Assembly: GCA_051294375.1 (NCBI GenBank)
Contig: CM119265.1
Location: 25,119,866 to 25,154,838, forward strand
From: Paraspadella gotoi
Taxonomy: Eukaryota; Animalia; Chaetognatha
DNA: 34,973 nucleotides
Reading direction: 5' to 3'
The translations under genes were made by a program, and so were the position numbers. Below are positions 1,915-32,456 of the stretch, one piece after another (the first letter of the stretch is position 1; each line of letters opens with the position of its first letter). Below the pieces are notes generated by a model. It saw only the letters and a program-made list of their open reading frames with translations. It made no database searches and was not told where the DNA came from.

Positions 1915-2859
1915 CCAAAATAAAACAGTGTGTCCAGGATGTCCGGGTAACTGAACACGTAATTTTTTTTCTAGACTTTTCGACTAATATCTACTTGGCG
2001 CTTTTCTTCTAATATCAATTTAAATTAATAAAGTCTTCCATTCTTTACAATCATATACAAACGAGTTTGAACAAACAATGCCAGATTTGCTTGCTATATT
2101 TAGCTAATCAGTTAATCAGATGATAAGCAATTTAGAAATGAGTTTCGGGTGGACTTTTCTCCATTTGAAAAAAATATTAACTAAAATCTATTTCCTAATA
2201 AACTATCAACGAGGAAAAATATTAATTAAAAATATTAATTAAAATCTATTTCCTAATAAACTTTATTAAACTATAACTATAACTATAATTGCAAAAAAAA
2301 TATAAATAATTTTACTGACATAAAAATGTCATTCCTTCACTCGAATTCTTTGATATCATTGTAATTTTATCACAATGAAATTATTACAATGATATTACTG
2401 AAAAAAACTTAATATTTTCATTTGATGCCGAATTTTTCTTACTAAAAATTCCAACCTCCACTCTTGGCTGACCTCCTCCACCAATCAGAGTCGAGTGATT
2501 CCGAGAAGATATTTTTAATTTTTAAATTTTTACACGCGAAGTCATCGAGGAAACGTGACGCTTTCAAAACCTGTGGAGTGGTCGGACGGACATACATACA
2601 GAGTGACAGACAGACAGACAGAAAGTCACACTAACGCACGGAAATACTTTCTTCGCATAATTTATCATAACTTAAGTGTATATCCGACAAGATTTTTTTT
2701 TTTTTTGTGACGGACAAAGTAGATTGTAGAGTCGGGATCTTCTGATAAGCAGATCCGACTCAAAATTCCAAAATTCAGTAATTCTGACCGAGCTTAAAAA
2801 CGAAGCTTAAAGATAGTTTGTTTCGATTAAATTCTGAACCAGATAGAACTTTTTAAAAA

Positions 2860-2907
2860 ATGTTTATTCTTCTGTTGATGACGACAATCAGCGTTTCTAC
2901 CAGTCTG
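2860..2907 (+). CDS. Exon 1 (signal peptide) of a 4-exon, 279-aa type I membrane protein with a three-finger/Ly6-uPAR-like ectodomain
   Basis: AAAATG start; encodes MFILLLMTTISVSTSL. GT donor at 2908, phase 0. An 85-nt intron ends ctttcatatcAG at 2992. Splicing creates the mature N-terminus LKCY typical of LU domains. Confidence 0.8.
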
Positions 2908-2992
2908 GTAAAAGAAATTATATATCAGCATGGTCTGCAGGTTAATCGATGATATTGAAATGAAAATCTAAGATTCGTTCCTTTCATATCAG

Positions 2993-3135
2993 AAATGTTA
3001 CGAAGGTACGAGTCAAAATTTGGATTTCATGGAGTTGGACTTTTGCGAGACTTGTTTCATTATTTCCGTTTATCCCGCTGGATTCCCGCCATACCACGAG
3101 ATGAGCTGCGAAAAAAGTAGACTGACTAATGAACA
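2993..3135 (+). CDS. Exon 2: N-terminal part of the LU/three-finger-like domain
   Basis: Encodes KCYEGTSQNLDFMELDFCETCFIISVYPAGFPPYHEMSCEKSRLTNE(Q) with no stops. Strong donor CA|GTGAGT at 3136, phase 2, compatible with exon 3. Confidence 0.85.
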
Positions 3136-3276
3136 GTGAGTAGGGTTAAAATTTAGTTTCTGTTTAAATGTTGGTCTACTGTTTAAAATAACAATTCATT
3201 AACTCTTAATATTTTCTAAGGTGAAAGAGACAGTGATATTTGATAAGTGTTAATGACAGAACCGGTTCAACTATAA

Positions 3277-3353
3277 GGCAGTCCCTGAGCTTCGGATCAG
3301 GCTGTAACACCATGTTACAGGCGGCGTTAAGCGCCCCGTCCCTCTTAACTGCC
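3277..3353 (-). ncRNA. Twister-ribozyme-like motif, P5-type permutation (family A, 3' LTR)
   Basis: Minus: GGCAGU UAA GAGG GA CGG GGCGCU UAA CGCC GC C UGUAAC AUGGU GUUACA G CCUGA U CCG AA GC UCAGG G ACUGCC. P5, P3, P4, T1 (CCG/CGG) and T2 (GC/GC) all pair, and the conserved UAA, GA and AAGC are present. P1 is minimal and P2 imperfect. Predicted cut between 3329 and 3328. Confidence 0.72.
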
Positions 3354-3355
3354 AG

Positions 3356-3427
3356 ACGACCACCGGGCTAGAACCCCGGACCTTTGGGTTGGGAGGCGAA
3401 TGTCTTGCCTCCGGCACCAATGGCCGC
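3356..3427 (-). other. tRNA-derived (Gly-like) Pol III A/B-box module inside the LTR, not a functional tRNA; second copy at 3781-3849
   Basis: 72 nt long. Acceptor-like stem GCGGCCA/UGGUCGU, A-box-like TGGTGCCGGAGG, TCGCCTCCCA as in tRNA-Gly(CCC), and T-arm CCGGG-GTTCTAG-CCCGG. The anticodon stem does not pair. Confidence 0.65.
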
Positions 3428-3462
3428 TGATGAACGATTGGTGGATTTTAGTCCACCATACA

Positions 3463-3474
3463 TCCCCCCCTCCC
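3463..3474 (-). promoter_or_regulatory. Polypurine tract
   Basis: Minus strand GGGAGGGGGGGA immediately precedes the TGTATGG start of the 3' LTR. Confidence 0.8.
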
Positions 3475-3635
3475 ATAGGGAGAAGTCTTGTTGCGTCTCT
3501 TCAGTGAATTGTTGTTGTTGGTGGAAAGTTCGTCACCAAGTTGAGGCATGTCGCCTGATGTGTTGTGTGCGGAAAGTGCATCGCCAGGTTGAGGCATGTC
3601 GCCTGAAAGTGTTGTTGTTGCTGTTGTGTTCGGAA

Positions 3636-3649
3636 GTCGGGGCTCACCA
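3636..3649 (-). promoter_or_regulatory. Primer-binding site complementary to the tRNA-Trp 3' end
   Basis: Minus strand reads TGGTGA(G)CCCCGAC, versus the tRNA-Trp PBS TGGTGACCCCGAC known from avian retroviruses. One inserted base. Confidence 0.8.
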
Positions 3650-3702
3650 ATGAAGAGACAGTAATTATTGATAAGTGTTAATGACAGAAACGTTCAATAT
3701 AA

Positions 3703-3778
3703 GCAGTCCCTGAGCTTCGGAATCAGGCTGTAACACCATGTTACAGGCGGGTTAAGCGCCCCGTCCCTCTTAACTGCC
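3703..3778 (-). ncRNA. Twister-ribozyme-like motif (family A, 5' LTR)
   Basis: Near-identical second copy with single-base indels. Predicted cut between 3754 and 3753. Confidence 0.68.
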
Positions 3779-3960
3779 AGACGACCACCGGGCTAGAACC
3801 CCGGACCTTTGGGTTGGGAGCGAATGTCTTGCCTCCGGCACAATGGCCGAACGTGAATGAACGATTGGTGGATTTTAGTCCACCATATAAGCCATTTTCC
3901 TTAACTTAGGACAAAATAAGCATCCAGCTATCAGTTTTACGATTGATCACACGTATCATT

Positions 3961-4263
3961 TGAAATTGGTAGAACCAATATAAAAATTATCCATTCATTT
4001 AATAAATAAGCTATCTTGCCCCTGACTTTGGACAGGCTTTGGTGGTTTAAGGCCTCCATCACTCTTACAATATAATGACATAGCAGGTCCCTGCAAGCGT
4101 TCAATCAAGACTCTCTCACAGTCTCGTTTATTCACTCCCAGAGTACCTGGCTTCCCTATCAATGAAGTGGTATACAATTTTAAAGAATGTTTCAATTATA
4201 AGGAAAGACCACTCCCTTAAGTATTTGATCGGGGAATACTATATTGTACTCCGCACTAGCATC
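3961..4263 (+). repeat. Unclassified dispersed repeat (~300 bp) in intron 2
   Basis: Reverse complement occurs at 32135-32456 and partially at 31921-32110. A more diverged relative lies near 25440-25520. Confidence 0.8.
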
Positions 4264-4929
4264 TTTTAAAAATTAGTATGATAATAAAAACAAGAACGGA
4301 GATTCCAATGTGTGTGGCGCCGAAAGGACCTTCTAATTACGTGTATTTTTGACATATACAGCATCGGAAAACGTCTTTTATTCTTGATATTCTTTAAAAA
4401 CAAAAGGTGTCGCTGACAGTCTCTTAGATTTGAGGTTTCTTCCCGCTCAGCAAAAATGACAAAAGAACAACCAAATAAATAGGGCAGTGAATTTTGGGTT
4501 AGATTTGTAGATTTGTAGGGTGATCACGTGACTTTAAAGTTTACAAGTATTATATATATGCACATTAAAGGTCTTACGGTGCCTTACCCTCTTACCAAAT
4601 ATGAACTTAATTGATAAAGCATTAAGCAAGTTATAAATATTTTTAACATAAGTGGACAGATCGATGGACAGACATACCAACCAACTATCTGACAGACCGA
4701 CCGAAAAGTGACTTATAAAGTTTAAATAGTAAGAGATATTTATTAGCTTTTGTTTAAATTTTTCAAACTGCTCCAACCATCCAATAACGAGTAATTGGGG
4801 ATTAATGCTCAGGTGGGACGGACAGACAGACGGACAGACGGACTCATGTTTAATTATCTATGTACCGTGCATTTTGTATAAATTACTTAATTAAAAGTCA
4901 TTCACAAACCATTTCATACATATATTTAG

Positions 4930-5126
4930 GCTCAAACAGAAGGAAAAGGATATTCACAAACTTAAAAAGGATTCCGGCGAGTCGTTCGCAATAAAACAGT
5001 GCACGAGCAATCTTTGCAACACACCGATCATGAACAAGAAGTCTGCCGGGCTGATGGTGGCCGTCGTTATTGTCGTCCTTCTAGATGTTCTCATCATCAT
5101 CGCAGTCATCGTATTAATATTTCTTG
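4930..5126 (+). CDS. Exon 3: C-terminal CxxxxCN motif plus transmembrane helix
   Basis: Acceptor tttAG at 4929. Encodes LKQKEKDIHKLKKDSGESFAIKQCTSNLCNTPIMNKKSAGLMVAVVIVVLLDVLIIIAVIVLIFL. Donor G|GTAAAC at 5127, phase 1. Confidence 0.88.
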
Positions 5127-6101
5127 GTAAACACTTTCTTATTATTTTTAATGAAATAGTAATATGTTAATCGGTATATACTATATGGTATTTTTAAACT
5201 TAGATCTAAACTTCTGACTAACCTTAGCGATAGAACTAGTTGATTTAGTAAATAGCGAAAAAGGCGTATTCTAACAATTATTAACTTTCTAAGGCGTTGT
5301 TTTTCATTTTGTTCAATTTTTTTTTCCGAAAAAATGAAGAGAAAGAAAAATATTAAAAAATGAACGTTAAAAAATAAAATTTAAAAGTTAAAAAAAAAAA
5401 CAAAAAAAAAAACAAAAACTAAACCTTAAAACATAAGCTTAGGAGCCGACGTCGTTCTTAGAGATCGAGGTGGAGATTTTCGTTCAAATCTGACGACCAC
5501 ATTTTTTTCTCTTGTCAAATCATCAACATCTTGATATCAAACAAGCCAGAACAAATAGACTGCTTCTGGACGAAAAAATTTTCTATCTCTGATTTTATAT
5601 AGAAATGAAAGGGATTTTTTTCCTAGAAAATGATATAAACATGACTGAGGTATGTTCCTGTTCAACAAATGAGGTCCAATTTTGGAATCCTTTGGCAAAG
5701 TGTCTGAAGGGCACTCAAAATTTTTCTTTACTTTATTTAGTTATTTTAATATAATACAATCATGGTAAAGTGAATTAGTCCATTTTGGTGAAATTTTTAT
5801 TTAAAGTAAAAGTAAAAGAGGAGCTGACGATCGAAATTCTAAGAGTTTTCAACCGGGAGTCAGATTCGGGAAAAATCTTCTATGGCAAAAATCTTCCAAA
5901 AAAGGGGTGGATTTTCCGAAGATTTTGGTTAATATTTTGTATATTTATGGTCGGATTTTTTTAAAACTTAATATTAACAATATTGCCATCATTCTACCTT
6001 GGCCGGTATAAGAATATATTAAAAAAAACCTCTGGCTTTGTTCGTCAGAGCTTAGTCCTAATAAGCTAGAAAGGTCAGGCTCTCTTTTCTTCTCCTTCAA
6101 G

Positions 6102-6553
6102 GCAAAATAACGGCTGACTTTAGCAAGAAAGAAGAAGGCGGTGAGGATAATGCCAACGCAAACGCCAGTAAGAACTTTTTCTCCAAGACTGAGAAGCTGA
6201 GGTGGAAGCTGCCGACAAAACCAACTCAGAGTTCTTTGAATCAAAACAAGAACGGGATTGAGGGGAAACCAAAGCCCGCCGTTGCTGAGGAGTCGAAAGA
6301 ACGCACCCCGATGACGGCAAATGTTCCTTATGGGGGAAATGATTCTAGGATGGGACAAGGCCCTTTGACCGGACAAGTCCCAATTGCGGGACATGATCCT
6401 AGAATGGAACAAGGCCCTTTGACCGGACATGGCCCGATAGGCGGACTTGAACCGAGGATGGGACAAGGCCCTTTGACCAGACACGGCCCGATGATGGAAC
6501 ACAGCCCAGCGAACCAGGGCAAGGCCGTAGAGGAAGCGGAGGGTCAGCCATAA
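6102..6553 (+). CDS. Exon 4: cytoplasmic tail with three 18-aa repeats; TAA stop
   Basis: Polypyrimidine tract 6080-6098 and AG at 6100-6101. The phase-1 join gives G-KITADFSKKEEGG..., in frame with ORF 6236..6553. 54-nt repeat starts at 6350, 6404 and 6458 (RMGQGPLTG/RMEQGPLTG/RMGQGPLTR). Confidence 0.85.
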
Positions 6554-6978
6554 ATGGATTGTGAAGCGAGTTCGAGAGTTAAGAAAAAAAATAAGAAGTC
6601 CTGGAAATTTTTTTTTTTTTTTTTGAAATCGCTTTGGCCCACGATGAAAGATCAACTCGAACATCATTCAATTGCTCCATTCAAACTAATTTACTTAATG
6701 TTATAGTTTTCATTTGATTACAATATTTTCATTGTGCCTTAAATTGTGAATATTTTGTATTACATGAGGATATGATTTTCGTGCGGGTAGAAATGTGAGT
6801 GAAAATCGTTTTTAGTGAAAATGAGGGTCACTTTTACAATTTTATTAAAAAAATTGTTTTAATGTTCATCCAAGTCGTTTTGATATCCTTCTATGGAGAA
6901 GGGGCTAAGTGTGCTGAAGAGGGGGAGATGGAGATGAGGGGAGAGGGAGGAAGGGAGGAGGAGGAGAGGGAGGAGGAG

Positions 6979-7074
<96 letters not shown>

Positions 7075-8275
7075 AAGAAAACGAACCGGAAAAAAAAAGT
7101 GGAATGCCCAGTGAAGTGAATCCCTTGAAGACAGATTGTCGTCGGTGAAGGTGAAAAGAAGCGGATTATTCACAAATCAGTTTTCACAAATCTCCGCTTC
7201 TTTGGCCTTTCACTTTGGGGAATTTTCTTCTTTTTTTTTGAGAGAGAGAGAAAAAAATCTTTCTTCCTTAGGAAAATCTTTCGTTGACAGACAGAGACGG
7301 ATGTACAGACGGACGGACGGACTGACAGAAAAATAAAGTTGAATTGAATCGTTGGAGGAACCACGAATTTGTGAGAGACTGAGGGACAAGAGTGAAAGAG
7401 ACGTCAAAGTCTGTGACAGATCGATTCACATCACAACTTTGATGACAGCAAACAACGCCGGATCTGCGCGCGGGCATTTAGCGATAAGGAACGAATCAGA
7501 TAATAAGTTATGGTTAATATTCCAATTTCTTTTTTATTTATTACAATTTTTATATTTCAACCTTTTTTGTGGTAGTTGTTTTAATTCTGGTGATAATACA
7601 GATAATACAGGACGGACGGACAGACTGACATACAGACGGAAATCATTTTTTTGGCGTAATTTAGTAGAATTTGATATAACTAATTTGACATAATCTAAGT
7701 GATTTACCGACAAGATTTTTGGAGTGGGACCGACTGACCGACAAAGCGAATAATGGAGTCGGAGACGGAGTCTGCTGTAAACAGATTCGGCAGAAAACCA
7801 ATTCGAAAATTTGGATTGTGGAAAGTCGAAAGTGAAAGATTTCTTTCTTTCTTTCTTTCTTCTTTCTTTCTTTCTTTCTTTCTTTCTTCTTTCTTTCTTT
7901 CTTTTCTTTCTTTGTTTTTTCTTTCTTGTCTTTCTTTTCTCTCTCCTCTCTCTCTCTCTCTCTCATTAAAATTCGATCTCCCTTAAACGTCGAAACGGGG
8001 AAGAAATGTGTCAGGGCGAGACGAAGCGCGAAGTGGTAAGGGTTCGAGCTGACGAGGTAAGTCACGCCGAGAATCTCGTCAAGAGGAGAGAAAAGGTGAG
8101 TTAAAGAGAGAGAGTAAAAAGTTTTAGTGTTCACTTTTTAAGATCACTCTCAAAAATGTATTTGTAAAATTTGACAAAGGGGAGATGAGACAGATTAAAG
8201 AAAAATATGTTAATAATAATATTTTGTTTTCATTTTGATTTTCACTTCATTTTTTATTCTGACTTGACAGCTATT

Positions 8276-8354
8276 CTTTCTATTCTATTCTATTCTATTA
8301 TATTCTATTATATTCTTTTCTTTTCTTTTCTTTACGTTTCTTTCTTTTTTTAGT

Positions 8355-8413
<59 letters not shown>

Positions 8414-8415
8414 TT

Positions 8416-8471
<56 letters not shown>

Positions 8472-8502
8472 TTTTATCTATCTTTTTTTCTTTCTTTCTT
8501 TC
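8276..8502. repeat. Compound (TATTC)n/(TTTA)n/(TTTC)n microsatellite; another (TTTC)n at ~7840-7965
   Basis: Direct reading. Confidence 0.9.
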
Positions 8503-9591
8503 CCGAAACGATCCACGTCCCCCATAAACGTGCCAGTAAAACCGGAGACTCGCAAACATAAACAGAATCAATTGGCGAATATTTTCTCGGAATTTCTCTC
8601 ACGTCGCCCCCCCCCCACGGAAAAAAAAGGTAAAAAAGAGTAAAAAGAAGAGAGTCGTGCTAAAAATAGAACAAGTTACTCGGTGCATAAAAAAAGTAAA
8701 GAAAGTTGCTCTGGGCTTTCAAAGAGAACAAAATTCTGCTGCTTTATTTTAAAATACGTTAAAACTAAATGTTGTATTAATTTATTTGGTTTTAATCAAA
8801 AAGACTTAGCGCAGGAAATGAGTTAAAGCTCGGGTAAAAAAAAACTAATCCTCAGTCTTTGCGAGACTTTGTCTCATTAAAAAAGAATTAAATAAAAAAT
8901 CAAAACAAAGAAAACAAAAAAAAGCTGAAATCAGGTCGGGTAAACTAGAGTCGAGTTTCAAGAATAACAAATGAGAACAAATTCCCATTAAATTTAAAAG
9001 GAAAACACAGAAAAAAAAATAATAAAAAAAAGAGAGAGAAAATTCCATTAGGACCGAAAGAAAAATTCCATTAAAAACGTCCTTGAGATGAAGCGGCGCC
9101 GGGCGTCGTCCGTGACACCCTTAGGGCTCTCGGGCTTCTGCAGACCCGGAGATTATTCCACTACGACCGTCAGCAGCCTTTGTGTGAGAGCAACCATCTG
9201 CTTTTCTGTTGCAATTGTCAAGGATTCTCGATCGACGCTGATGAATCTTGACCGAAAATACGTAGTGTAAAAATACAAATAAAAAAAATAAATGAGATAA
9301 TAAGTCAAATAATAAACAATTTATATCTTTCTTTTTTTAAATATATATTTTTAATTCTCACGCGATAATTTTTGAGACGAAATACAACTTTTTTTTTTTT
9401 AGTAAGAACGAGTTTAAGATAAAATTATGCTAATGATTTTGATTTGAATAAATATTCTACTCAACATTACAACCTTAAGTCGATATACAATTCCCAACTT
9501 TCTGCTGACGCTCTCTGGCAGACGAGAGCAAAAACTGTTAATCTTGTAAAACTTTAGTTGTTTCCTTTCGACCTTCTTTTTAAAGACATTA

Positions 9592-9695
<104 letters not shown>

Positions 9696-9917
9696 CTTTT
9701 TCAAGGGCGGCGCATCCTTTAGAAAGAAGAAGCACCTTTTTCCCCCTTTTTTTTTATTCTGAGGAAGAAAAGGGGAGAATTTATTTAAATTGTTTTCTTT
9801 CTTTATCTTATTATTCAATATTAGGTACATAAAAATATATATATTATAATCAGTTAATCAGACGTCAAAGTGACTCTTATTTAAGGTTGGCTCCCCGCTG
9901 CAATCCAAGCCTACATG

Positions 9918-10050
9918 GGAGAGCTTTGGAGAGCTTTGGAGAGGTTTGGAGAGGTCTGGAGAGGTCTGGAGAGGTCTGGAGTGGTCTGGAGCATATGGAT
10001 GATCTGGAGAGGTCTGGAGTGGTCTGGAGAGGTTTGGAGAGGTTTGGAGG
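9918..10050. repeat. 10-bp minisatellite (GGTCTGGAGA)n
   Basis: About 13 degenerate units. Confidence 0.92.
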
Positions 10051-10859
10051 TAGTTCAAACCCGTACAGATATCCTGTAACGTTAAATGGAGGATATTCGC
10101 CATCGACAAATCGTTCCATCGTGGTCACGTTCTGTCGAAAGCATCCCATCGGGCTTCTTATTGCGTCATGTGCATTGTCCATGTGAAAGAAGTCGACACA
10201 GTGTGACTCATCACATTGTTTGCCAAATTTATTGGTTAAATCATCGTGAGACCATCGGCGGGTTCGGGCTCAACGGGTTTAGATTAGTGATGAATGAATT
10301 AATTTTTTTAGTTAGAAACATAAAAAAAAAATTACATGCCGTAAAATAGCCGTAAAAAATAATTATATTTAATTTTCAGCTATTTATGTCAATTTCCATT
10401 CAGATGTGGACAAACATTGAGGGAGTAGTTTGTAATGTGATTATCAAAAAAACATATTCGAAATGTCTTCCGTGTCCCATCCATAAAAACTGCAGCAGCA
10501 GTAAAAGTGGCTGCCGCAGCAAAGCCAACCCCCCCAAAAAAAAAACAACAAAAAACTTCACAATTTGATCGAGATTTCGGATTTTCTTCAAGTCGCCCCC
10601 CCCCCTTGGCCTCCCCCCCACTAAAAAAAAATGGAAGATTGGTTCTCGCGCCATTTTAAAAACAAACAAAACGCCAGCGCCGCCTCTCGGTTGAGAGAAG
10701 AGGGTAAGAATTGAGAGAAAAAAAAGGTAAACAAAGTTTTGAGGAAAGATTTTTTAATCGATTTCAACTCGTTTTTGGGAGAAGAAATAAAACGACTTTT
10801 GTTTATTTATTTTTTGAAGAAAAGAAAAGAAGAGTGGAAGGAGAAGAAAGATGACAGTC

Positions 10860-11261
10860 ACGATGAGATGATGACAATGACAACCATGACGACGATGACG
10901 ACGACGACGACGATGACGACAACGACGACGATGACGACAACGACGACGATGACGACAACGACGACGATGACGACCACGACGATGAAAGAAAACGACAAGG
11001 ACGATGTCGAAGATCGGGACGATTTCAAAGAAAAGAGCGAAGATGACAATGACGACCAGGACGACGTAGAAGACGATGATAAACGCGAAAATGACAAAGA
11101 CGACAATAATGGCAACGAAAGGGACGACGATTATGACGACGTTGATGACGACGACGAGGACGACGACGACGAGGCACAATTCAACAATGATGATGGAAAA
11201 GGCGGAGACTCAGGCGACGACGATGGTGATAACAGTGAGATGGATGGAGGCCCAAAGCCGA

Positions 11262-11309
<48 letters not shown>
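10860..11309 (+). repeat. Degenerate (GAC)n tract
   Basis: Source of the poly-Asp/poly-Thr ORFs in the track. Confidence 0.88.
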
Positions 11310-11311
<2 letters not shown>

Positions 11312-11380
11312 GCCGATATTTCTAGTGGTTTTATGCGACGCGATTCTGAAGCATTTTGAAAAGGGAAAGAAAAATGAAAG

Positions 11381-11428
<48 letters not shown>

Positions 11429-11937
11429 GGTAGCAGTTTCGGGTCGAGAGATGGAGTCGAGAAGGGGGCGAAGGGGAGCAAGGAGTTCGTTTAAGAATTG
11501 GGCGAGTGGAAGCAACGCGCCAGGGGGAGCAAGTAGGACAAGAACACGAGTGGATTGAGCCAGCTGGAGCATGAGAAAGCCAGTCAGGCCAAATAAGTAG
11601 TGAACTCTAGTTTAGCGAGATCGGTATAACACGAGGCTAACTGGAGCAGTGAAGAGATCGTTACAAAAGAGGCCAGGAGTAGTGAAAGGTGATGAATTAG
11701 GAAACATGAGTAGAGCGAGTATTTCAGAGGAGCTAGAAGAAGCCGAGTACAGAAGGGACGAAGGGAAAGCTAATGCGAAGGGGGCTAAGTGGAGGTACAA
11801 GGGGGTGCGAGTACGTAAGCGGCCAACTGGAGCGAAGGGGGAGGGTGGAGATGGAGGGGGTGTCGAAGTCGACGAGAACAGCAAGAAGCAAATGACTTGA
11901 ATGATTTGGTCTCAGCAGGCGACGTTTCTCCGTTTCG

Positions 11938-12287
11938 GTCGTCGTCGTCGTCGTCTTTGCTGTCATCGTCGTCGTCATCTTCGTCGTCGTCGGCGTTGCT
12001 GTCGTCGTCCTCGTCGTCATCGTCGTCGTCGTTGTCCTCTTCGTCGTCGCTGTCGTTGTCGTCGTCGTCTTCGTCGTCGTCAATGTCTTTGTCTTTTTCG
12101 TAGTCGTCGTCTTCGTCATCTTCGTCGTAGTCACCGTCGTTGTTTTCGTCGTCGTCTGTATCGTCTTCGTCGTCGACGTCGTTTTCTTCGTCGTCTTCGT
12201 CGTCGACAATATGGCGACCGCCGCTGAATTGTAATCGGGCAATTTACTTCGCCTCAGACTTTTCGAAACCCATTTAACATTTATGCT

Positions 12288-12328
<41 letters not shown>

Positions 12329-12333
12329 TATCG
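11938..12333 (-). repeat. Degenerate (GTC)n tracts, inverted relative to 10860-11309
   Basis: Direct reading. Confidence 0.88.
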
Positions 12334-12882
12334 TTTTCTGGTTTTTTTCCAGAAAATATTTGAGGTTACGTAGAAGTTCAAAAACATCAAGCTGAGCTGA
12401 GTTGCCATGGAGATATCGTGTGGCACCGTCGCTCTCTACGATAAAGCGAGAAACGTTTTTTGGTACATATTGATATTGCCCTGGTTAAATACGTATATAC
12501 TGTTTATTAAACTGATCTCAAATCTACATACATGATCAGAGTTTCTATGTTGTTGTCGCGTTTCCCACCGTGATAACGACGATTCCACTGCATTTAGCAA
12601 CTGCCATCAATACTGGAACCGCAATGGATCTGGAAACCTAAATTGCTCCTGGAACCGCTTTCCTTCATTAAGTCTCACGTCAGCGGTTTTTTTTCTTTTT
12701 CGTCTGCGTTGCCATTTTTTTTTGGTTTTTTTTTTNNNNNNNNNNNNNNNNNNNNNNNNNNNNNNNNNNNNNNNNNNNNNNNNNNNNNNNNNNNNNNNNN
12801 NNNNNNNNNNNNNNNNNNNNNNNNNNNNNNNNNNNNNNNNNNNNNNNNNNNNNNNNNNNNNNNNNNNNNNNNNNNNNNNNNN

Positions 12883-12964: not shown

Positions 12965-13572
12965 GAAAGAGGACCTTCTAATTAACGTGTATTTTTGACA
13001 TATACAGCATCGGGAAACGTCTTTTATTCTTGATATTCTTTTAAAAAACAAAAGGTTGGCTGCAGTCTCTTAGATTTTGAGGTTTCTTCCCGCTAAGCAA
13101 AAATGACAAAGGAACAACCAAATAAATAGGGCAGTGAATTTTTGGGTTAGATTTGTAGATTTGTAGGGTGATCACGTGACTTTAAAGTTTACAAGTATTA
13201 TATATAGCACATTAAAGGTCTTACGGTGCCTTACCCTCTTACCAAATATGAATTAATTGATAAAGCATTAAGCAAGTTATAAATATTTTTAACATAAGTG
13301 ACAGATCGATGGACAGACATACCAACCAACTATCTGACAGACCGACGAGAAAAGTGACTTATAAGTTTAAATAGTAATGAGATATTTATTAGCTTTTGTT
13401 TAAAATTTTCAAACTGCTCCAACCATCCAAAAAGAGTTTTGGGGATTAATGCCTCAGGTGGGACGGACAGACAGACGGACAGACGGACTCATGTTTAATT
13501 ATCTATGTACCGTGCATTTTGTATAAATTACTAATTAAAAGTCATTCACAAACCATTCATACATATATTTAG

Positions 13573-15198
13573 GCTCAAACAGAAGGAAAAGGAATATTCA
13601 CAAACTTAAAAAGGATTCCGGCGAGTCGTTCGCAATAAACAGTGCACGAGCAATCTTTGCAACACACCGATCAATGAACAAGAAGTCTGCCGGGCTGATG
13701 GTGCCGTCGTTATTGTCGTCCTTCTAGATGTTCTCATCATCATCGCAGCATCGTATTAATATTTCCTTGGTAAACACTTTCTTATTATTTTTAATGAAAT
13801 AGTAATATGTTAATCGGTATTACTATATGGTATTATTTTTAAACTTAGATCTAAACTTCTGGACTAACCTTAGCGATAGAACTTGTTATTTAGTAAATAG
13901 CGAAAAAGGCGTATTCTAACCAATTGATTACTTTCTAAGGCGTTGTTTTCATTTTGTTCAATTTTTTTTTTTCCGAAAAAATGAAGAGAAGAAAAATATT
14001 AAAAAATGAACGTTAAAAAATTAAAATTTAAAAGTTAAAAAAAAACAAAAAAAAAAACAAAAACTAACCTTAAAACATAGCTTAGGAGCCGACGGCGTTC
14101 TTAGAGATCGAGGTGGAGATTTTCGTTCAAATCTGACGACCACATTTTTTTTTCTCTTGTCAAATCATCAACATCTTGATATCAAACAAGCCAGAACAAA
14201 TAGACTGCTTCTGGACGAAAAAATTTTCTATCTCTGATTATATAGAAATGAAAGGATTTTTTCCTAGAAAATGATATAAACATGACTGAGGTATGTTCCT
14301 GTTCAACAATGAGGTCCAATTTTGGAATCCCTTTGCAAAGTGTCTGAAGGGCACTCAAATTTTTCTTTACTTTATTTAGTTATTTTAATATATACAATCA
14401 TGGTAAAGTGAATTAGTCCATTTGGTGAAATTTTTATTTAAGTAAAAGTAAAAGAGGAGCTGACGATCGAAATTCTAAGAGTTTTCAACCGGAGTCAGAT
14501 TCGGGAAAAATCCTTCTATTTGGCAAAAAATCTTCCAAAAAAAGGGTGGATTTCCGAAGATTTTTGGTTAAATATTTTGTATATTTTGGTCGGATTTTTT
14601 TAAAAATTAATATTAACAATATTTGCCATCATTTACCTTGGCCGGTATAAGAATATATTAAAAAAAACCTCTGGCTTTGTTCGTCAGAGCTTAGTCCTAA
14701 TAAGCTAGAAAGGGTCAGGCTCTCTTTTCTTCTCCTTCAGGCAAAATAACGGCTGATTTAGCAAGAAAGAAGGAAGGCGGTGAGGATAATGCCAACGCAA
14801 ACGCCAGTAAGAACTTTTTTCTCAAGACTGAGAGCTGAGGTGGAGCTGCCGACAAAACCAACTCAGAGTTCTTTGAATCAAAACAAGAACGGGATTGAGG
14901 GAAACCAAAGCTCCGCCGTTGCTGAGGAGTCGAAGAACGCACCCCGATGACGGCAAATGTTCCTTTATGGGGGAAATTGATTCTAGGATGGGACAAGGCC
15001 TTGACCGGACAAGTCCAAATTGTGGCGGGACATGATCCTAGAATGGAACAAGGCCCTTTGACCGGGACATGGCCCGGATAGGCGCGGACTTGAACCGAGG
15101 ATGGGACAAGGCCCTTGACCAGACACGGCCCGATGATGGAACACAGCCCAGCGAAACCAGGGCAAGGCCGGTTAGAGGAAGCGGAGGGTCAGCCATAA
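13573..15198 (+). pseudogene. Partial duplicate of the membrane-protein gene (exon 3 at 13573-13769, exon 4 at 14741-15198), frameshifted, lacking exons 1-2
   Basis: Same exon and splice-site sequences as 4930-5126 and 6102-6553 with many 1-nt indels. These may be sequencing errors rather than true decay. Confidence 0.6.
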
Positions 15199-15677
15199 AT
15201 GGATTGTGAAGCGAGTTCGAGAGTTAAGAAAAAATTAAGAAGTCCTGGAAATTTTTTTTTTTTTTTTTGAAATCGCTTTTGGCCCCACGATGAAAGATCA
15301 ACTCGAACATCATTCAATTTGCCTCCATTCAAACTAATTATACTAATGTTATAGTTTTCATTTGATTACAATATTTTCATATGTGCCTTAAATTGGTGAA
15401 TATTTTGTATTACATGAGGATATGATTTCGTGCGGTAGAAATGTGGAGTGAAAATCGTTTTTTAGTGAAAATGAGGGTCACTTTTACAATTTTATTAAAA
15501 AAAAATTTTTTTTTTTTAATGTTCATCCAAGTCGTTTGATATCCTTCTATGGAGAAGGGGCTAAGTGTGCCTGAAGAGGGGATATGGAGATGAGGGGAGG
15601 GGAGGAAGGGAGGAGGAGGAGAGGGAGGAGGAGGAGAGCGAAGAGAGAGAGAGAGAGAGGGAGAGAGAGAGGAGGAG

Positions 15678-15713
<36 letters not shown>

Positions 15714-16547
15714 GAGGAAAGAAAAAAAACGAACCGGAAAAAAAAAAGTGGAATGCCAGTTTTTTTGAAGTGATCCTTGAAGACAGATTGTCGTCGGTGA
15801 AGTGAAAAGAATCGGATTATTCCACAAATCAGTTTTCACAATCTCCTCTTCTTTGCCTTTCACTTTGGGGAATTTTCTTCTTTTTTTTTGAGAGAGAGAG
15901 AAAAAACATCTTTCTTCTTAGGAAAATCTTTCGTTGACAGACAGAGACGGATGTACAGACGGACCGGACGGACTGACAGAAAAATAAGTTGAATTGAATC
16001 GTTGGAGGAAAACGAATTTGTGAGAGACTGAGGGACAAGAGATGAAAGAGACGTTCAAAGTCTGTGACAGATCGATTCACATCACAACTTTGATGACAGC
16101 AAACAACGCCGGATCTGCGCGCGGGGCATTTAGCGAGTAAGAACGAATCAGATAATAAGTTATGGTTATATATTCAATTTCTTTTTTATTTTTATTTTAC
16201 AATTTTTATATTTCAACCTTTTTTTTTGTTGGTAGTTGTTTTTAATTCTGGTGATAATACAGATAATACAGGACGGACGGACAGACTGACATACAGGACG
16301 GAAATCATTTGTTTGGCGTAATTAGTAGAATTTGAATATAACTAATTTGACATAATCTAAGTGATTTACCGACAAGATTTTTGGAGTGGGACCGACTGAC
16401 CGGACAAAGGAATAATGGAGTCGGAGACGGAGTCTTGCTGTAAACAGATTCGGCAGAAAACCAATTCGAAAATTTGGATTGTGGAAAGTCGAAAGTGAAA
16501 GATTTCTTTCTTTCTTTCTTTCTTCTTTCTTTCTTTCTTTCTTCTTT

Positions 16548-16583
<36 letters not shown>

Positions 16584-17052
16584 GTCTTTCTTTTCTCTCT
16601 CCTCTCTCTCTCTCTCTCTCATTAAAATTCGATCTCCCTTTAAACGTTCGAAACGGGGTGAAGAAATGTGTCAGGGCGAGACGAAGCGCGAAGTGGTAAG
16701 GGTTTCGAGCTGACGAGGTAAGTTTCACGCCGAGAATCCGTCAAGGAGAGGAAAAGGTGAGTTAAAGAGAGAGAGTAAAAAGTTTTAGGTGTTCACTTTT
16801 TTTAAGATCACTCTCAAAAATGTATTATTGTAAAATTTGACAAAGGGGAGATGAGACAGATTCATAAGAAAAATATGTTAATAATAATATTTGTTTCATT
16901 TATGATTTTCCACTTCATTTTTTATTTCTGACTTGACAGAAAGCTTATTCTTTCTATTCTATTCTATTCTATTATATTCTATTATTTCTTTCCTCTTTCT
17001 TTTCTTTACGTTTCTTTCTTTTTTTATTTTAAGTTAATTTATTTTATTTACT

Positions 17053-17087
<35 letters not shown>

Positions 17088-18356
17088 TTTTTTATTTTTT
17101 TATTATTTTATTTTTATTTATTTATTTATTTCTTTCTTTCTTTCTTTCCTTTCTTTCTTTCTTTCTTTCTTTCTTTTTCTTTTTTATCTATCTTCTTTTT
17201 TTCTTTCTTTCTTTCCCGAAACGAATCCACGTCCCCCCATAAACGTGCAGTTAAAAACGGAGACCTCGCAAACATAACAGAATCAATTGTGCGAATTATT
17301 TTCTTTCGGAATTTCTCTCACGTCGCCCCCCCCACGGAAAAAAAAGGTAAAAAAGAGTAAAAAGAGAGAGTCGTGCTAAAAATAGAACAAGTTACTCGGG
17401 TGCATAAAAAAAGTAAAGAAAGTTGCTCTGGGCTTTCAAGAGAACAAAAATTCTGCTGCTTTATTTTAAATACGTTAAACTAAATGTTGTATTAATTTAT
17501 TTGGTTTTTAATCAAAAAGACTATACGCGCAGGAAATGATTTAAGCTCGGTAAAAAAAAACTAATCCTCAGTCTTTGCGAGACTTTGTCTCATTAAAAAG
17601 AATTAAATAAAAAATCAAAAAACAAAAGAAAACAAAAAAAAGCTGAAATCAGGTCGGGTAAACTAGAGTCGAGTTTCAGAATAACAAATGAAACAAATTC
17701 CCATTAAATTTAAAAAGGAAAACACAGAAAAAAAAATAATAAAAAAAAAAAGATGAGAGAAAATTCCATTTAGGACCGAAAGAAAAATTCCATTAAAAAC
17801 GTCCTTGAGATGAAGCGGCGCGGGGCGTTTCGGTCCGTTGACCACCCTTAGGGCTCTCGGGCATTTGCAGACCCGGAGATATTCCACTGTTTACGACCGT
17901 CAGCAGCCTTTGTTTGAGAGGCAACCATCTGCTTTTCTGTTTGCAATTGATCAAGGCATTCTTCGATCGACCGATGAATCTTGACCGAAAATACGTAGTA
18001 TTGTAAAAATACAAATTAAAAAAAATAAATGAGATAATAAGTCAAAATACTAAAACAATTTATATCTTTCTTTTTTTAAATATTATATTTTTTTAATTCA
18101 TCACGCGATAAATCTTTTGAGGACCGAAATACAACTCTTTTTTTTTAGTAAGAATCGAGTTTAAGATAAAATTATGCTAATGATTTTGATTTGAATAAAA
18201 TATTCTACTCACATTACAACCTTCAGTCGATTACAATTCCCAAACACTTTCTGCTGTTTCGAGTAGCCAAAAAACTGTTAATTCTTGAAACTTTAGTTGT
18301 TCCTTTCGACCTTCTTTTTTAAAGACATTACGCTCACTCTCTCTCTCTCTCTTCTC

Positions 18357-18407
<51 letters not shown>

Positions 18408-18638
18408 GCTTTTTCAAGGCGGCGCATTCCTTTAGAAAAAGAAGAAGCACCTTTTTTCCCCCTTTTTTTTTATTCTGAGAAGAAAAGGGAGAATTTATTT
18501 AAAATTGTTTTCTTTCTATTATCTTATTATTTCAATATTAGTACATAAAAATATATCATTATATAATCAGTTAATTCAGACGTTCAAAGTGACTCTTTTT
18601 AAGGTTGCTCCCCGCTGGCCAATCCCAAGCCTACATAG

Positions 18639-18899
18639 GGAGAGCTTTGGAGATCTTTGGAGAGGTTGGAGAGGTCTGGAGAGGTCTGGAGAGGTCTGGG
18701 TGGTCTGGAAGAGGTCTGGAGAGCCGTCTGGATGGTTCTGGAGACGATTCTGGAGTGGTTTAGATGACTGGGAGTGGTCTGGATGAGGTCTTGGAGAGGT
18801 CTGAGTGGTCTGGAGAGGTCTGGAGATGTCTGGAGTGGTCTGGAGAGGTTCTGGAGAGGTCTGGAGTGGTCTGGAGAGGTTTGGAGAGCGTTTTGGAGT
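18639..18899. repeat. 10-bp minisatellite (GGTCTGGAGA)n, longer version in copy 2
   Basis: Roughly twice the length of 9918-10050 between the same flanks. Confidence 0.9.
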
Positions 18900-20182
18900 A
18901 GTTCAAAACCCGCTACAAGATTATCCTGTAAGTTAAATGGAGGATATTCGCCATCGCACAAATCGTTCCATCAGTTGGTCACGTTCTGTGAAGCATCCCA
19001 TCGGGCTTCTTATTGCGTATGTGCATGTGTCCATGTGAAAGAAGTCGACACAGTGGTGACTTCATCACATTGTTGCCAACAATTTATTGGTTAAATCATC
19101 GTGAGGACCATCGGCGGGTTCGGGCTCCAACGGGTTTTAGATTACCCTCATGAATAATTAATTTTCTTTAGTTAGAAAGCATAAAAAAAAAATTATCATG
19201 CCGTAAAAATAGCCGTAAAAAATTCAATTTATATTTTAATTTTCAGCTATTTATGTCAATTTCCATTAGATTGTGGACCAAAACATTGAGGGAGTAGTTT
19301 GGTATGTTTGATTATCAAAAAAACATTATTCGAAATGTTCTTCCGTGTCCCATCCATTAAAAAACTGCAGCAGCAGTAAAAGTTGGCTGGCCGCAGCAAA
19401 GCCAAACCCCCCCCAAAAAAAAAACCAACAAAAAACTCACCAACTTGATCGACGATTTTCGGATTTTCTTCAAGTCGGGCCTGTCCACCCCCCCCCCTGG
19501 CCTCCCCCCCCACTTAAAAAAAAATGGAGATTGGTTTCGGTCGGCGCAATTTAAAAACAAACAAAACGCCAGCGCCGCCTCTCGGTTGAGAGAAGAGGGT
19601 AAGAATATGAGAGAAAAAAAAACGGTAAAACAAAGTTTTGAGGAAAGATTTTTAATCCGATTTTCAACTTTCGTTTTTGGGAGAAGAATAAAACGACTTT
19701 TGTTTATTTAATTTTTTTTGAAGAAAAGAAAGAAGAGTGGAAGGAGAGGAAAGATTGACAGTCACGATGGAGGATGATGACAATGGACAACCATGACGAA
19801 CGATGCACGACGACGACGACGATGCACGACAACGACGACGATGACGACAACGACGACGATGACGACAACGACGACACGATGACGACCACGGACGATGAAG
19901 AAAACGACAAGCGACAGATGTCGAAGATCGGGACGATTTCAAAGAAAAGAGCGAATATTGCACAATGACGAACCAGGACGCACGTAAGAAGCACGATTGA
20001 TAAACGAGAATGCGACCAGACGACAATAAAATGAGCAACGAAAGGGACGACGATTATGACGACGTGTGATGACGACGACGCACGACGAGGCACGAATTCA
20101 ACATGATGAAGCGAAAAGGCGCGAGAACTCAGGCGACGACGATAGGTCGATAACAGTGAGATGGAATGGAGGCCCAAACCGA

Positions 20183-20237
<55 letters not shown>

Positions 20238-21589
20238 GTGCCGATTATTTCTAGTGGTATTTATGACGAATCGCTCTCTGAAGCATTTTAGAAAAGGGAA
20301 AGGAAAAAATGGAGAGATCGAGAGAGAGAGAGAGAGACTGAGAGAGAGAGATAAAGAGAGAGAGAGAAGAGAAGAGAGATGAGAGAGAGAGAGACCGCGC
20401 TTTGTTCTCGTGGTCGATGAGATGAGTCGGAGAAGGGGCGAAGGGCGAGCAAGGAGTTCGTTTAAGAATTGGGCGAGTGGAAGCAACGCGCCGGGGGAAA
20501 GCAAAGTAGGACAAGAACACGAGTGGATTGAGCCAGCTGGAGCATGAGGAAAAGCCACGTCAGGCCAAATAAGTCGTGAACTCTTAGTTTAGCCGATAGG
20601 ATCGGTACTAACACGCAGGCTAACTGAGCAGTGAAGAGATCTCTCTTACAAAAAGAGCCAGGATGTAGTGAAAAGGTGATGAAAAATTAGGAAACATGAG
20701 TAGAATGCGAGTATTTCAGAGGAGCATAGACAGAAGCGGAGTACAGAAGCGGACGAAGGGAAAGCTACATGCGGAAGGGGGCTAAATTGGAGGTACAAGG
20801 GGCGATGCGAGTACCGTAAAGCGGCCAACTGACGGAGCGAAGGGGAGGTGGAGATGGAGGGGGTGTCGAAGTCGCGAGAACAGCAAGAAGCGCAAATGAC
20901 TTGAAGATTTGGTCTCAGCAGGCGACGTTTCTCCGTTTCCGGTCGTCGTCGTCGTCGTCTTTGCTGTCACTCGTCGTCATCTTCGTCGTCGTCGGCGTTG
21001 CTGTCGTCGTCTTCGTCGTCCATCAGTCGTTCGTATTCGTTGTTCCTCTTCGTCGTCGCTGTCGTTGTCGTCGTCGTCTTCGTCGTTCGTCAATGTCTTT
21101 GTCTTTTTCGTAGTCGTCGTCTTCGTCATCTTCGTCGTAGTCACCTCGTTGTTTTCGTCGGTCGTCCTGTATCGTCTTCGTCGTCGACGTCGTTTTCTTT
21201 CGTCGTCTTTCGTCGTCGACTAATATGGCGACCGCCGCCTGAATTGTTAATCGGGCAATTTACTTCGCCTCAGACTTTTCGAAACCCATTTAACATTTAG
21301 CTGTCGTCGTCGTCGTTCGTGTCCGTCGTTCGTCGTCGTCGTCGTCGTTATTCTGTTTTCTGGTTTTTTTCCAGAAAATATTTGAGGTTACGTAGGAAGG
21401 TTCAAAAACATCTAAGCTGAAGCTGAGTTGCCATGGGAACGATATCGTGTGGGCACCGTCGCTCTCTACGATTAAAGCCGAGAAACGTTTTTTGGGTACA
21501 TATTGATATTGCCCTGGTTAAAATACGATATATTATGGCAAACAGCAGGCGTTAGCCTGTGATGCCCATTTGGGATGGGGCATCTCACT

Positions 21590-21675
21590 GTTGGCTTTGG
21601 GGGCTTCCGACCCTCAGTGACGCAATCCAGTCACTGGCGCTGGTTACCCGTAGGACCCGGTCTCGCTTTGCCAAC
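21590..21675 (-). ncRNA. Twister-ribozyme-like motif, P5-type (family B, 3' LTR)
   Basis: Minus: GUUGGC AAA GCGA GA CCG GGU CC UACG GG UAA CCAGC GC C AGUGAC UGGAUUGC GUCACU GA GGG U CGG AA GC CCC CAAA GCCAAC. P5, P3, P4, T1 (CGG/CCG) and T2 pair. Predicted cut 21646/21645. Confidence 0.72.
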
Positions 21676-22018
21676 GCAGAGGAAGTCATTAGCGACTGTG
21701 AGATGGAACACTACGCCTGGATGGTGTGTTCCCCCTCTGAGCCAATGGATTTAGCGCTAACGCATGCTGTGGACGTGACGGCGGTAGTGAAATATACCAC
21801 CAACAGGATCCCCGGACCAAGACATCACCTCAGGTTCCTCAAGCCTGAGAGGGTCTGACAGACTGTCACCATAGTGGGAAGAGAGAGAGCAGAGCGCTTC
21901 GAGTTGTGGGGCGCATAGGCGTTTGTACGTAAGCGTACCCCAGGGGCATAGGCGTTTGTCGTAGGCGTACCCGATTTTACGATCGGCAGGGACCATCGCG
22001 TTTGCGTAGCGTACCCTG

Positions 22019-22053
22019 AGAAGGTGCGTGTTCGATAGATAGAGGCTTCACCA
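22019..22053 (-). promoter_or_regulatory. Degenerate tRNA-Trp-type PBS with similarity extending into the T-arm
   Basis: Plus strand AGAAGGTGCGTGTTCGA...TTCACCA resembles the tRNA-Trp 3' half AGAAGGTTGCGTGTTCRAATCACGTCGGGGTCACCA. It lies 1 nt from the LTR. Confidence 0.6.
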
Positions 22054-22105
22054 CTTATGCAACAGCAGGGTTGCTGTCGATGCCCATTGGGATGGGCATC
22101 TCACT

Positions 22106-22197
22106 GTTGGCTTTGGGGCGCTTCAAACACCTCAGTGACGACACTCCAAGTCACTTGGCGCGACGTTACCCTAGGACCGGTCTCGCACTTTGCCAAC
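22106..22197 (-). ncRNA. Twister-ribozyme-like motif (family B, 5' LTR; noisy)
   Basis: Same layout, with P2 UCGC/GCGA, P3 AGUGAC/GUCACU and P5 GUUGGC/GCCAAC. P4 and its loop are corrupted by errors or mutation. Predicted cut 22168/22167. Confidence 0.55.
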
Positions 22198-22704
22198 GCA
22201 GACGGGAAGTCATATAGGACTGTGGATGGCAACACTACGCTGGGATGGTGCTGTTCCCCCTCTGAGCCAATGGATTTTAGGACTGAACGATGGTGGACGT
22301 GAGGCGTGTTTGGAATATACCACCACAAATATACTGGTTTTATTAAACTGATCTCAAATCTACATACATGATCAGTAGTTTCTATGTTGTTGTTCGCCGC
22401 TTTCCCACCGTTTGATAAACGACGATTTCCACTGCATTTAGCAAACTGCCATCAATACTTGGAACCGCAATGGATCTGGAAACTAAAATTGCTCCTGGAA
22501 CCGCTTCCTTCATTAAGTCTCACGTCAGCGGTTTTTTCTTTTTTCGTCTGCGTTGCCATTTTTTTGGTTTTTTTAAAGCGTTTTTGTTTTTTTTTTGCGT
22601 TTTTTGTGTTTTTTTTGTTTTTTGCCACGATTTCTCAGCTTTCTCCCAGGATATTGTTTCGCCCAACTTGAAAACCCGCGGGCGTTCGGGCAGGCGGGGA
22701 TAAG

Positions 22705-31920: not shown

Positions 31921-32456
31921 GTTCACTGGGAGTGAATATAATGAGACTCGTGAAAGAGTCTTGATAGAAAAGCTTGCAGAAACTCTGCTGATATTCATTA
32001 TCTTGTAAGTGTGATGGAGGCGCGTAAACCGACAAAGGCCTGTCCAAAGTCAACGAAGTAGCTTATTTAATTAAATGAACGGATAATTTATATATGTTGT
32101 ACCAATTTCATAAAAATTCACCTCCTTGTATTTTGATGCTAGTGCGGGGAGTACAATATAGTATTTCACCCGATTCTAATACTTAAGGGAGTGCGGTCTT
32201 TTCAGTACAAATGGAAAGCATTCTTTGAAATATTACTTACCACTTCATTGATAGGGAAGCCAGCGTTCACTGAGTGAAATAAATGAGTACTGTGAAAAGA
32301 GTCTGATGAAAGCTGGTGCAGAAAACCTGCTATGTATTATCTTGTAAGTGTGTGCATGGAGGCCTTAACCACCAAAAAGCCTGTCACAAGTCAGGGACAA
32401 GATCAGCTTATTAGGTAAGATGAATGGATAATTTTATTATTGTTGTACCAATTTCA
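31921..32456 (-). repeat. Two adjacent inverted copies of the 3961-4263 repeat
   Basis: GATGCTAGTGCGG..AGTACAATATAGTATT..TACCACTTCATTGATAGGGAAGCCAG..TACCAATTTCA is the reverse complement of 3961-4263. Confidence 0.8.

Follow-up and report, generated by a model that had tools for sequence, protein, structure and literature searches.

A non-coding LTR mini-retrotransposon (TRIM) of 666 bp lies on the minus strand, at 3887-3222, of the window analysed, a stretch of 34,973 nt from Paraspadella gotoi, and its sequence supports the presence in each LTR of a P5-permuted twister fold with predicted cleavage. By analogy, the element is likely an animal counterpart of the LTR retrozymes of plants.

The element displays two LTRs, a total length below about 1 kb, no coding capacity, and a site of primer binding (PBS) as well as a polypurine tract (PPT) at the inner LTR edges. 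The 5' LTR (3651..3887, minus strand, 237 nt) starts with TATGG and ends with TTCA, its limits being given by the LTR alignment and by loose contig ends at 3651. The 3' LTR (3222..3460, minus strand, 239 nt) is delimited by the same alignment and by loose contig ends at 3460. These two repeats, announced as about 240 bp each in the original prediction, are identical at 226 of 230 aligned bases, with 11 gap columns in addition, and differ mostly by single-base indels typical of noisy long-read assembly. They enclose a non-coding internal region of 190 nt (3461..3650, minus strand), covered by contigs in four runs and including a 19-nt direct repeat (3606-3588 and 3558-3540, minus strand). The PBS (3636..3649, minus strand) begins one base past the TTCA end of the 5' LTR and matches the tRNA-Trp pattern of the CsRn1 clade, as given in PMC2582038; its base 3639 is missing from most contigs. 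The PPT is a purine tract of 12 nt (3463..3474, minus strand) located 2 bases ahead of the 3' LTR start. The longest stop-free stretch of the element counts 93 codons and has no match in Pfam. Moreover, neither a retroelement domain nor one diagnostic of the host was found by Pfam in 60 translated frames of the window, where four weak low-complexity matches were obtained. Thus, the tRNA-Trp PBS, the PPT and the absence of coding capacity previously claimed were all recovered.

The element is flanked by a probable 4-bp target-site duplication, TAAG on the plus strand, provided that one extra base is allowed at 3221. On the 5' side, it stands at 3888..3891, contigs exiting the LTR at the equivalent base 3460. 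The element therefore ends at 3887 and not at 3889 as first proposed, 3888-3891 being the target duplication. On the 3' side, TAAG stands at 3217..3220, where the match of the unique flank contigs of X1 and X4 ends. The extra G 3221, between the 3' LTR and TAAG, is probably an assembly error because unique contigs stop matching at 3220. The check for a target duplication is thus positive on both sides of this single copy at the cost of discounting one base. Two further structures were observed in the element. A short strong hairpin is located at the 5' start of each LTR, upstream of a tRNA-like cassette (3457-3440 and 3884-3867), and the internal bases 3495-3503 are a 9-base complement of the LTR 3' end (3651-3659), the predicted fold closing a domain around the PBS. 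Such a closed domain is reminiscent of retroviral U5-leader stems.

The assembly of the window is noisy, with six N runs, so that single-base differences need outside checks. Contigs from public sequencing runs were used, 16 of the 18 runs listed holding the stretch and the best nine sharing one organism label; X1, X4, X5 and X9 were compared. In these four runs, there are exactly two points where contigs depart from the repeat, 3460 and 3651, at about equal frequency, with respective counts of 103 and 100 in X1, 126 and 91 in X4, 70 and 54 in X5, and 26 and 31 in X9. The flanks beyond the element ends are mutually unrelated (agreement 0.41-0.44), and, in each of the four runs, the consensus of the loose ends is ATAT beside either end. 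The family thus comprises at least about 100 insertion sites, its two ends being fixed and its target AT-rich. The unique flank at 3000-3220 is matched without difference by contigs of X1 and X4. The junction between PBS and LTR is bridged by independent contigs (an X5 record covering 3602-3767 and an X9 record covering 3531-3681), and none among the contigs listed spans the whole element. The LTR-element anatomy initially put forward is therefore borne out in independent contigs by the sharp ends, the unrelated flanks and the bridged junction.

The same contigs inform about variation. Inside the twister fold, the common variants listed fall in the P3 loop (3312) and at the P5 end (3353), 15 further variant rows existing and depth being low at P2. 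With the same low depth at P2, no common variant among those listed for the four runs affects the twister core. G 3325, which disturbs P2 in the 3' LTR, is replaced or omitted in nearly all the contig depth at this place. A diverged LTR subfamily is also seen in X4 (joint 3317-3388), in which P2 consists of three perfect pairs and the fifth base of GANGG differs. In addition, bases 3403 and 3437 and their 5' LTR equivalents are shared by both LTRs and differ from about 95-100% of the contig depth. Such shared private bases are expected if both LTRs were copied from one RNA, an assembly effect being another conceivable source.

The twister folds of the P5 type are found at 3703..3778 in the 5' LTR and at 3277..3353 in the 3' LTR, both on the minus strand, both from the minimum-energy fold and the family comparison, and the latter from a descriptor as well. 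In each LTR, a closing helix is followed by P2', GACGG, a six-base spacer, UAA, P2, GC, an 8-pair P3, a 5-pair P4 and the loop UCCGAAGC, the order P2'-GANGG-spacer-UAA-P2-T2-P3-P4 being that of the Rfam P5 consensus. The features of the type P5 present include the UAA cut site, the GANGG strand, the UCCNAAGY loop, the pseudoknots T1 and T2, and the helices P2 and P4. In the 3' copy (minus strand), GACGG is located at 3340-3336, the spacer at 3335-3330, UAA at 3329-3327 and L4 at 3296-3289, with a predicted cut at 3329/3328. In the 5' copy, carrying one extra base near 3721 compared with the other LTR, the self-complementary P1 spacer stands at 3760-3755 and the predicted cut at 3754/3753 (minus strand). 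In both copies, P3, P4 and P5 are part of the minimum-energy fold, with z values of -2.33 and -1.59. P2 of the 5' LTR is formed of three pairs with a one-base bulge, a layout common to the neighbouring family. Thus, the caveat of an imperfect P2 holds as far as this bulge is concerned and loses weight in that G 3325 is mostly replaced or absent in contigs and that the neighbour shares the layout.

A descriptor requiring both pseudoknots, P2 and P4, composed after the motif had been seen, matches the 3' copy as well as another element, located at 4060-4025; the 5' copy is missed due to one extra base before L4. It matched 1 of 20,000 dinucleotide-shuffled LTRs and none of 200 shuffled windows. 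A looser pattern detects five places in the window, belonging to three families. Rfam models, the check suggested at the outset, called neither LTR twister at E up to 10, and no hammerhead was matched in the 2200-5000 part of the window at the same threshold. The miRNA matches of the Rfam scan were discarded as simple-repeat artefacts.

The second of these families is a high-copy element at 3961-4263 with a twister at 4066-4020 on the minus strand and a perfect palindromic spacer. Its match to the Rfam Twister-P5 model (RF02684) reaches 25.8 bits (E 0.014), the gathering score being 37.6. One end is fixed at 3961 (258 contigs in X1) with unrelated flanks, and the other continues in tandem for about 23 bases. 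This element looks like a twister-bearing non-LTR retrozyme or a tail of the Penelope/Naiad type, its unit measuring about 326 bp, and decayed tandem copies of it are found at 31920-32456 on the plus strand. In a third twister-like motif, at 25680-25611 on the minus strand, T1 and T2 are intact and the spacer is self-complementary; P2 and P4 are imperfect. Elsewhere in the window, an 8.6-kb tandem duplication (4325-12732 versus 12970-22574) with 88-92% identity and differences consisting mostly of indels adjoins N runs and is possibly an assembly artefact or an uncollapsed haplotype. A 162-codon frame at 6065-6553 (plus strand), made of 18-residue Gly/Pro-rich repeats, matches the Pfam Cementoin family just above the cut-off and may be an exon of a structural protein.

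Comparison of the LTR twister with the family at 4020-4066 reveals changes on both sides of several pairs. Indeed, the third T1 pair and the first T2 pair go from G-C to A-U, the first P2 pair goes from C-G to A-U, the spacer changes on both sides, and P4 keeps its pairing with another sequence. A MAFFT alignment of six twister-like copies misplaced P3 and P4 and was excluded from the pair counts. When a model was built from the two LTR copies, the other two families were the best non-self matches in the window (16.5 and 16.1 bits, E 0.05-0.06), scores also reached by unrelated loci preselected for an 18-nt match, 8 of 29 lying at 15.7-18.6 bits. The twister-like fold claimed for each LTR is thus found in both, with P5, P3, P4, both pseudoknots and a short P2, and with double changes relative to two families. 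Its alleged likeness to Schistosoma twisters is also verified, since the layout UAA-P2-GC-CUGUA of S. mansoni twisters given in Table 1 of PMC8501958 is the same. Relatives were searched for more widely. Metagenome scans returned 0 loci, and an 18-mer gave 29 loci, none aligning beyond 26 nt. In viral scans, a loose pattern yielded 120 loci, of which one (L095) meets the descriptor and none is similar by BLAST, and a tight pattern yielded 0. The scan of prokaryotic genomes gave 0 loci, and phage records gave no match.

The spacer between GANGG and UAA is GGCGCU for the LTRs; that of the second family is AGGCCU, and that of the third GGCGUC. In all three window families, it pairs fully with a second copy of itself; the spacer of the decayed copy at 32013 is not self-complementary. 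P1 consists of one G-U pair within a copy versus six pairs between two copies. The reservation that P1 has only 1-2 bp thus applies to a single copy, whereas the sequence concerned is a self-complementary hexamer and not a decayed stem. In a transcript carrying both LTRs, the swap is nested, the 5' half of one ribozyme pairing with the 3' half of the other. The swapped structure has a fold energy of -191.7 kcal/mol, and the two separate folds have energies of -188.3 and -180.9. In unconstrained folding, the probability of P5 is 0.54-0.59 between LTRs and 0.01-0.09 within a copy. The thermodynamic support for the swap is modest because the free fold, at -206.0, has a much lower energy than the swapped one and assigns to the spacer duplex a probability of 0.0, pseudoknots not being counted. 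An amphibian hammerhead with a one-pair helix and a palindromic loop cuts better as a dimer, as described in PMC7229834. Given the self-complementary hexamer in all three families, both LTR copies within a transcript are likely to cut together, as a strand-swapped pair.

Upstream of the twister, each LTR includes a tRNA-like cassette with A-like and B-like boxes 44 nt apart and acceptor-like and T-arm-like stems. In the 3' LTR, it covers 3356..3427 (minus strand), with a degenerate A box from 3419 and a B box from 3375, and was recognised by a descriptor and by its fold (z -2.74). In the 5' LTR, it was located by alignment to the 3' LTR at 3781..3852 (minus strand) and, containing indels, fails in the descriptor scan. 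This descriptor, designed post hoc, matches none of 20,000 shuffles and no other place in the window. Neither ARAGORN nor Rfam calls a tRNA for the cassette. The B box contains GGTTC, and the A box departs from the TRGCY/YGG pattern of PMC10886601. The earlier account of the LTR contents, supported as to the twister, overlooked both this cassette and the self-complementary P1 spacer. The cassette is likely a Pol III promoter, to judge by its boxes and stems. A tRNA-like cassette, although degenerate here, is the hallmark of Helenus TRIMs (PMC10886601). The 5' end of the element adjoins the PPT, 33 bases upstream of the tRNA-like head, a position consistent with priming at the PPT rather than with a start of the SINE type. 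The sense strand of the element is devoid of T4 runs, the first one occurring at 3188, 34 nt past this copy. T4-free stretches amount to 9 of 604 in the window and to 1058 of 5000 base shuffles, and this absence is not significant against base shuffles.

A full cycle of cutting, circularisation and copying, going through a Pol III RNA, a double cut, a 425-nt circle and copying by a CsRn1-type helper, is favoured with moderate confidence on sequence grounds. Pol III would start at the tRNA-like head of the 5' LTR and read through, as the sense strand has no T4 run. The self-complementary hexamers of both LTR copies would then pair, because P1 forms poorly within one copy, and the halves would swap to create two hybrid active sites. 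As these hybrid sites need both LTRs, active sites would appear only once the 3' LTR is transcribed. The double cut at 3754/3753 and 3329/3328 would release a monomer carrying PBS and PPT, for which the predicted cut coordinates and the length of about 425 nt first given agree with the sequence (425 nt exactly). The swapped helices would hold together the 5'-OH and cyclic-phosphate ends of the monomer for a host ligase such as RtcB, an enzyme that circularises animal retrozyme RNA in vitro (PMC7229834). Both cuts being at the same LTR position, the monomer would have no terminal repeat and ordinary strand transfer would be impossible, which argues for a circle. tRNA-Trp would prime at the PBS, and the reverse transcriptase would cross the circle junction, before the PPT primes the second strand and an integrase inserts the DNA at AT-rich 4-bp targets. 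The enzymes for reverse transcription and integration would be provided by a CsRn1-like Ty3/gypsy helper, no such element being seen in the window. The stability of the circular monomer is not unusual (z -1.36, with 9 of 100 shuffles being as good), a difference from what is reported for retrozymes. The ligated junction of such a circle would be identical to LTR sequence.

Another explanation, rather unlikely, is that of a Helenus-like TRIM with a passenger ribozyme. A SINE with a tRNA head and a Penelope/Naiad-type twister tail would have become the LTR, the RNA would be linear and undergo ordinary strand transfer, and the twister would be inactive or cut rarely. Kojima indeed proposes that a SINE inserted into an LTR gives rise to such TRIMs (PMC10886601), and the minimal P1 and the bulged P2 suit a ribozyme of this kind. 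The twister is separated from a TTCA end by 63-67 nt in the LTRs and, in the tandem family at 3961-4263, by 64 nt, which hints at an LTR built from a tRNA head and a Penelope-type tail. However, the LTR and tandem-family tails are not significantly alike, 93 of 1000 shuffles scoring as well, and the core and the covarying pairs are intact in a family of at least about 100 insertions, with no core variant among the common ones listed. Furthermore, since ordinary strand transfer could not survive an active double cut, a passenger twister would have to be nearly inactive. Naiads themselves are reported to have no canonical hammerheads (PMC8557442).

Somewhat less probable still is an active ribozyme serving a linear cycle, in which usually one site would be cut, trimming of the read-through tail standing in, for instance, for a Pol III terminator, and no circle would be needed. 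The LTRs are devoid of T4, whereas those of the Helenus elements inspected mostly carry a T-run after the tRNA part (PMC10886601), and either single cut leaves a usable repeat, with a redundancy of about 95-103 nt for strand transfer. Nevertheless, both LTRs share the same fold, the swapped pair would offer two equivalent sites, and plant LTR retrozymes of the same layout accumulate as circles (PMC7761336).

It is very improbable that the repeat was mobilised by a Penelope/Naiad element and that its partial tandem mimics LTRs, without any true LTR element. Naiads form pseudo-LTRs and prefer (TA)n targets, and a non-autonomous relative was at one time mistaken for an LTR element (all in PMC8557442). 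In the present element, however, the inner LTR edges coincide exactly with PBS and PPT, neither end varies in position and a 4-bp duplication is probable. The neighbouring tandem family forms a contrast, with random flanks at one end (3961, 258 contigs in X1) and a tandem continuation at the other. Finally, an assembly duplication of one LTR or a twister-like fold arising by chance is hardly credible. In its favour, the assembly is noisy, with an 8.6-kb duplication showing many indels, no listed contig spans the element and Rfam makes no call. Against it, independent contigs contain the internal region and the junction of PBS and LTR, the LTR pair is flanked by the target duplication, the twister descriptor matches 1 of 20,000 shuffles and three families covary.

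Several known systems are close to the element. Plant LTR retrozymes (Cervera, Urbina and de la Pena 2016, PMC4918200; PMC7761336) are likewise non-coding, with a self-cleaving motif per LTR, predicted in the present case. PBS, PPT, a 4-bp duplication, a probable Ty3/gypsy helper and a unit RNA delimited by two cut sites are other common features (PMC4918200). In contrast, plant retrozymes carry a type III hammerhead instead of the P5 twister and a PBS for tRNA-Met instead of tRNA-Trp, their LTRs measure 300-400 bp versus 238 bp here, and their monomers about 600-1000 nt versus 425 nt (PMC4918200). The host differs too, being here probably an invertebrate animal according to the genome's repeat landscape and the PBS type. 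The tRNA-like cassette is peculiar to the present element, and circles have been observed for retrozymes, whereas they are predicted here (PMC4918200). Strictly, an LTR retrozyme is defined by a type III hammerhead in each LTR, the place taken by a twister fold in this element.

Helenus TRIMs and TRIMp3 (Kojima 2024, PMC10886601) resemble the element by their size below 1 kb, a tRNA-like sequence in the LTR, and PBS and PPT. Animal Helenus families share the 4-bp duplication, and some wasp families also share the tRNA-Trp PBS and TA...CA ends, the PBS comparison including Gypsy-32_NVi and Helenus-2_SyJa (PMC10886601, Fig. S2). They differ in that the tRNA part of the present element, near the LTR 5' end, shows more degeneration and is not followed by a T-run (PMC10886601). 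In the available text of this paper, ribozymes appear solely in one reference title. In its consensus file, where line breaks may hide some occurrences, 7-mers of the twister L4 were found at 12 places (PMC10886601). Internal regions account for 11 of these and the remaining 1 precedes a fungal tRNA part; on visual inspection, no twister context surrounds any of them.

In Schistosoma mansoni, Perere-3 bears twister T-variants (Liu et al. 2021, PMC8501958), which also have a core attached to a retrotransposon and a long P3 beginning with CUGUA. They are of the P1 type and located at the 5' end of an autonomous non-LTR element, whereas the twister described here is of the P5 type and present in both LTRs. 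Animal non-LTR retrozymes and Penelope-like elements carry dimeric type I hammerheads that share the one-pair helix, the palindromic loop and a closure model of the RtcB type, but belong to another ribozyme class, in repeats having no LTRs, PBS or PPT (PMC7229834; bioRxiv 10.64898/2026.07.22.740005). Ty3/gypsy elements of the CsRn1 clade such as PwRn1 and AgCR have the same tRNA-Trp PBS pattern, a 4-bp duplication and termini that may depart from TG...CA; these autonomous elements, encoding gag and pol, differ in this respect and are candidate helpers (PMC2582038).

Animal ribozyme repeats are stated to lack LTRs, PBS and PPT (PMC4918200, PMC7229834), and a 2026 preprint keeps the same two classes of retrozymes (bioRxiv 10.64898/2026.07.22.740005). 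As for twisters, their known association is with non-LTR elements. Within the open literature accessible in part, outside subscription journals, Repbase, the lists of Roth et al. 2014 and preprint supplements, neither a twister-bearing LTR element nor an animal retrozyme with PBS and PPT was found. The element may, tentatively, be both the first animal and the first twister-based LTR retrozyme, driven by Pol III, combining a tRNA head and a Penelope-type tail, cut as an obligate swapped pair and replacing the first strand transfer by a circle. An obligate dimeric twister, if real, would be a new natural architecture overlooked by Rfam, and, should the element cut and circularise, circles made by ribozymes would be suggested as a general way of entering LTR reverse transcription. 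That a gypsy enzyme reverse-transcribes a circle has long been proposed and is so far unshown; this step becomes directly testable with an element of 666 bp, in high copy number, whose primer, cut sites and helper clade are predictable. If the element cuts and circularises, the retrozyme strategy known from plants would have arisen independently in another kingdom, with another class of ribozyme.
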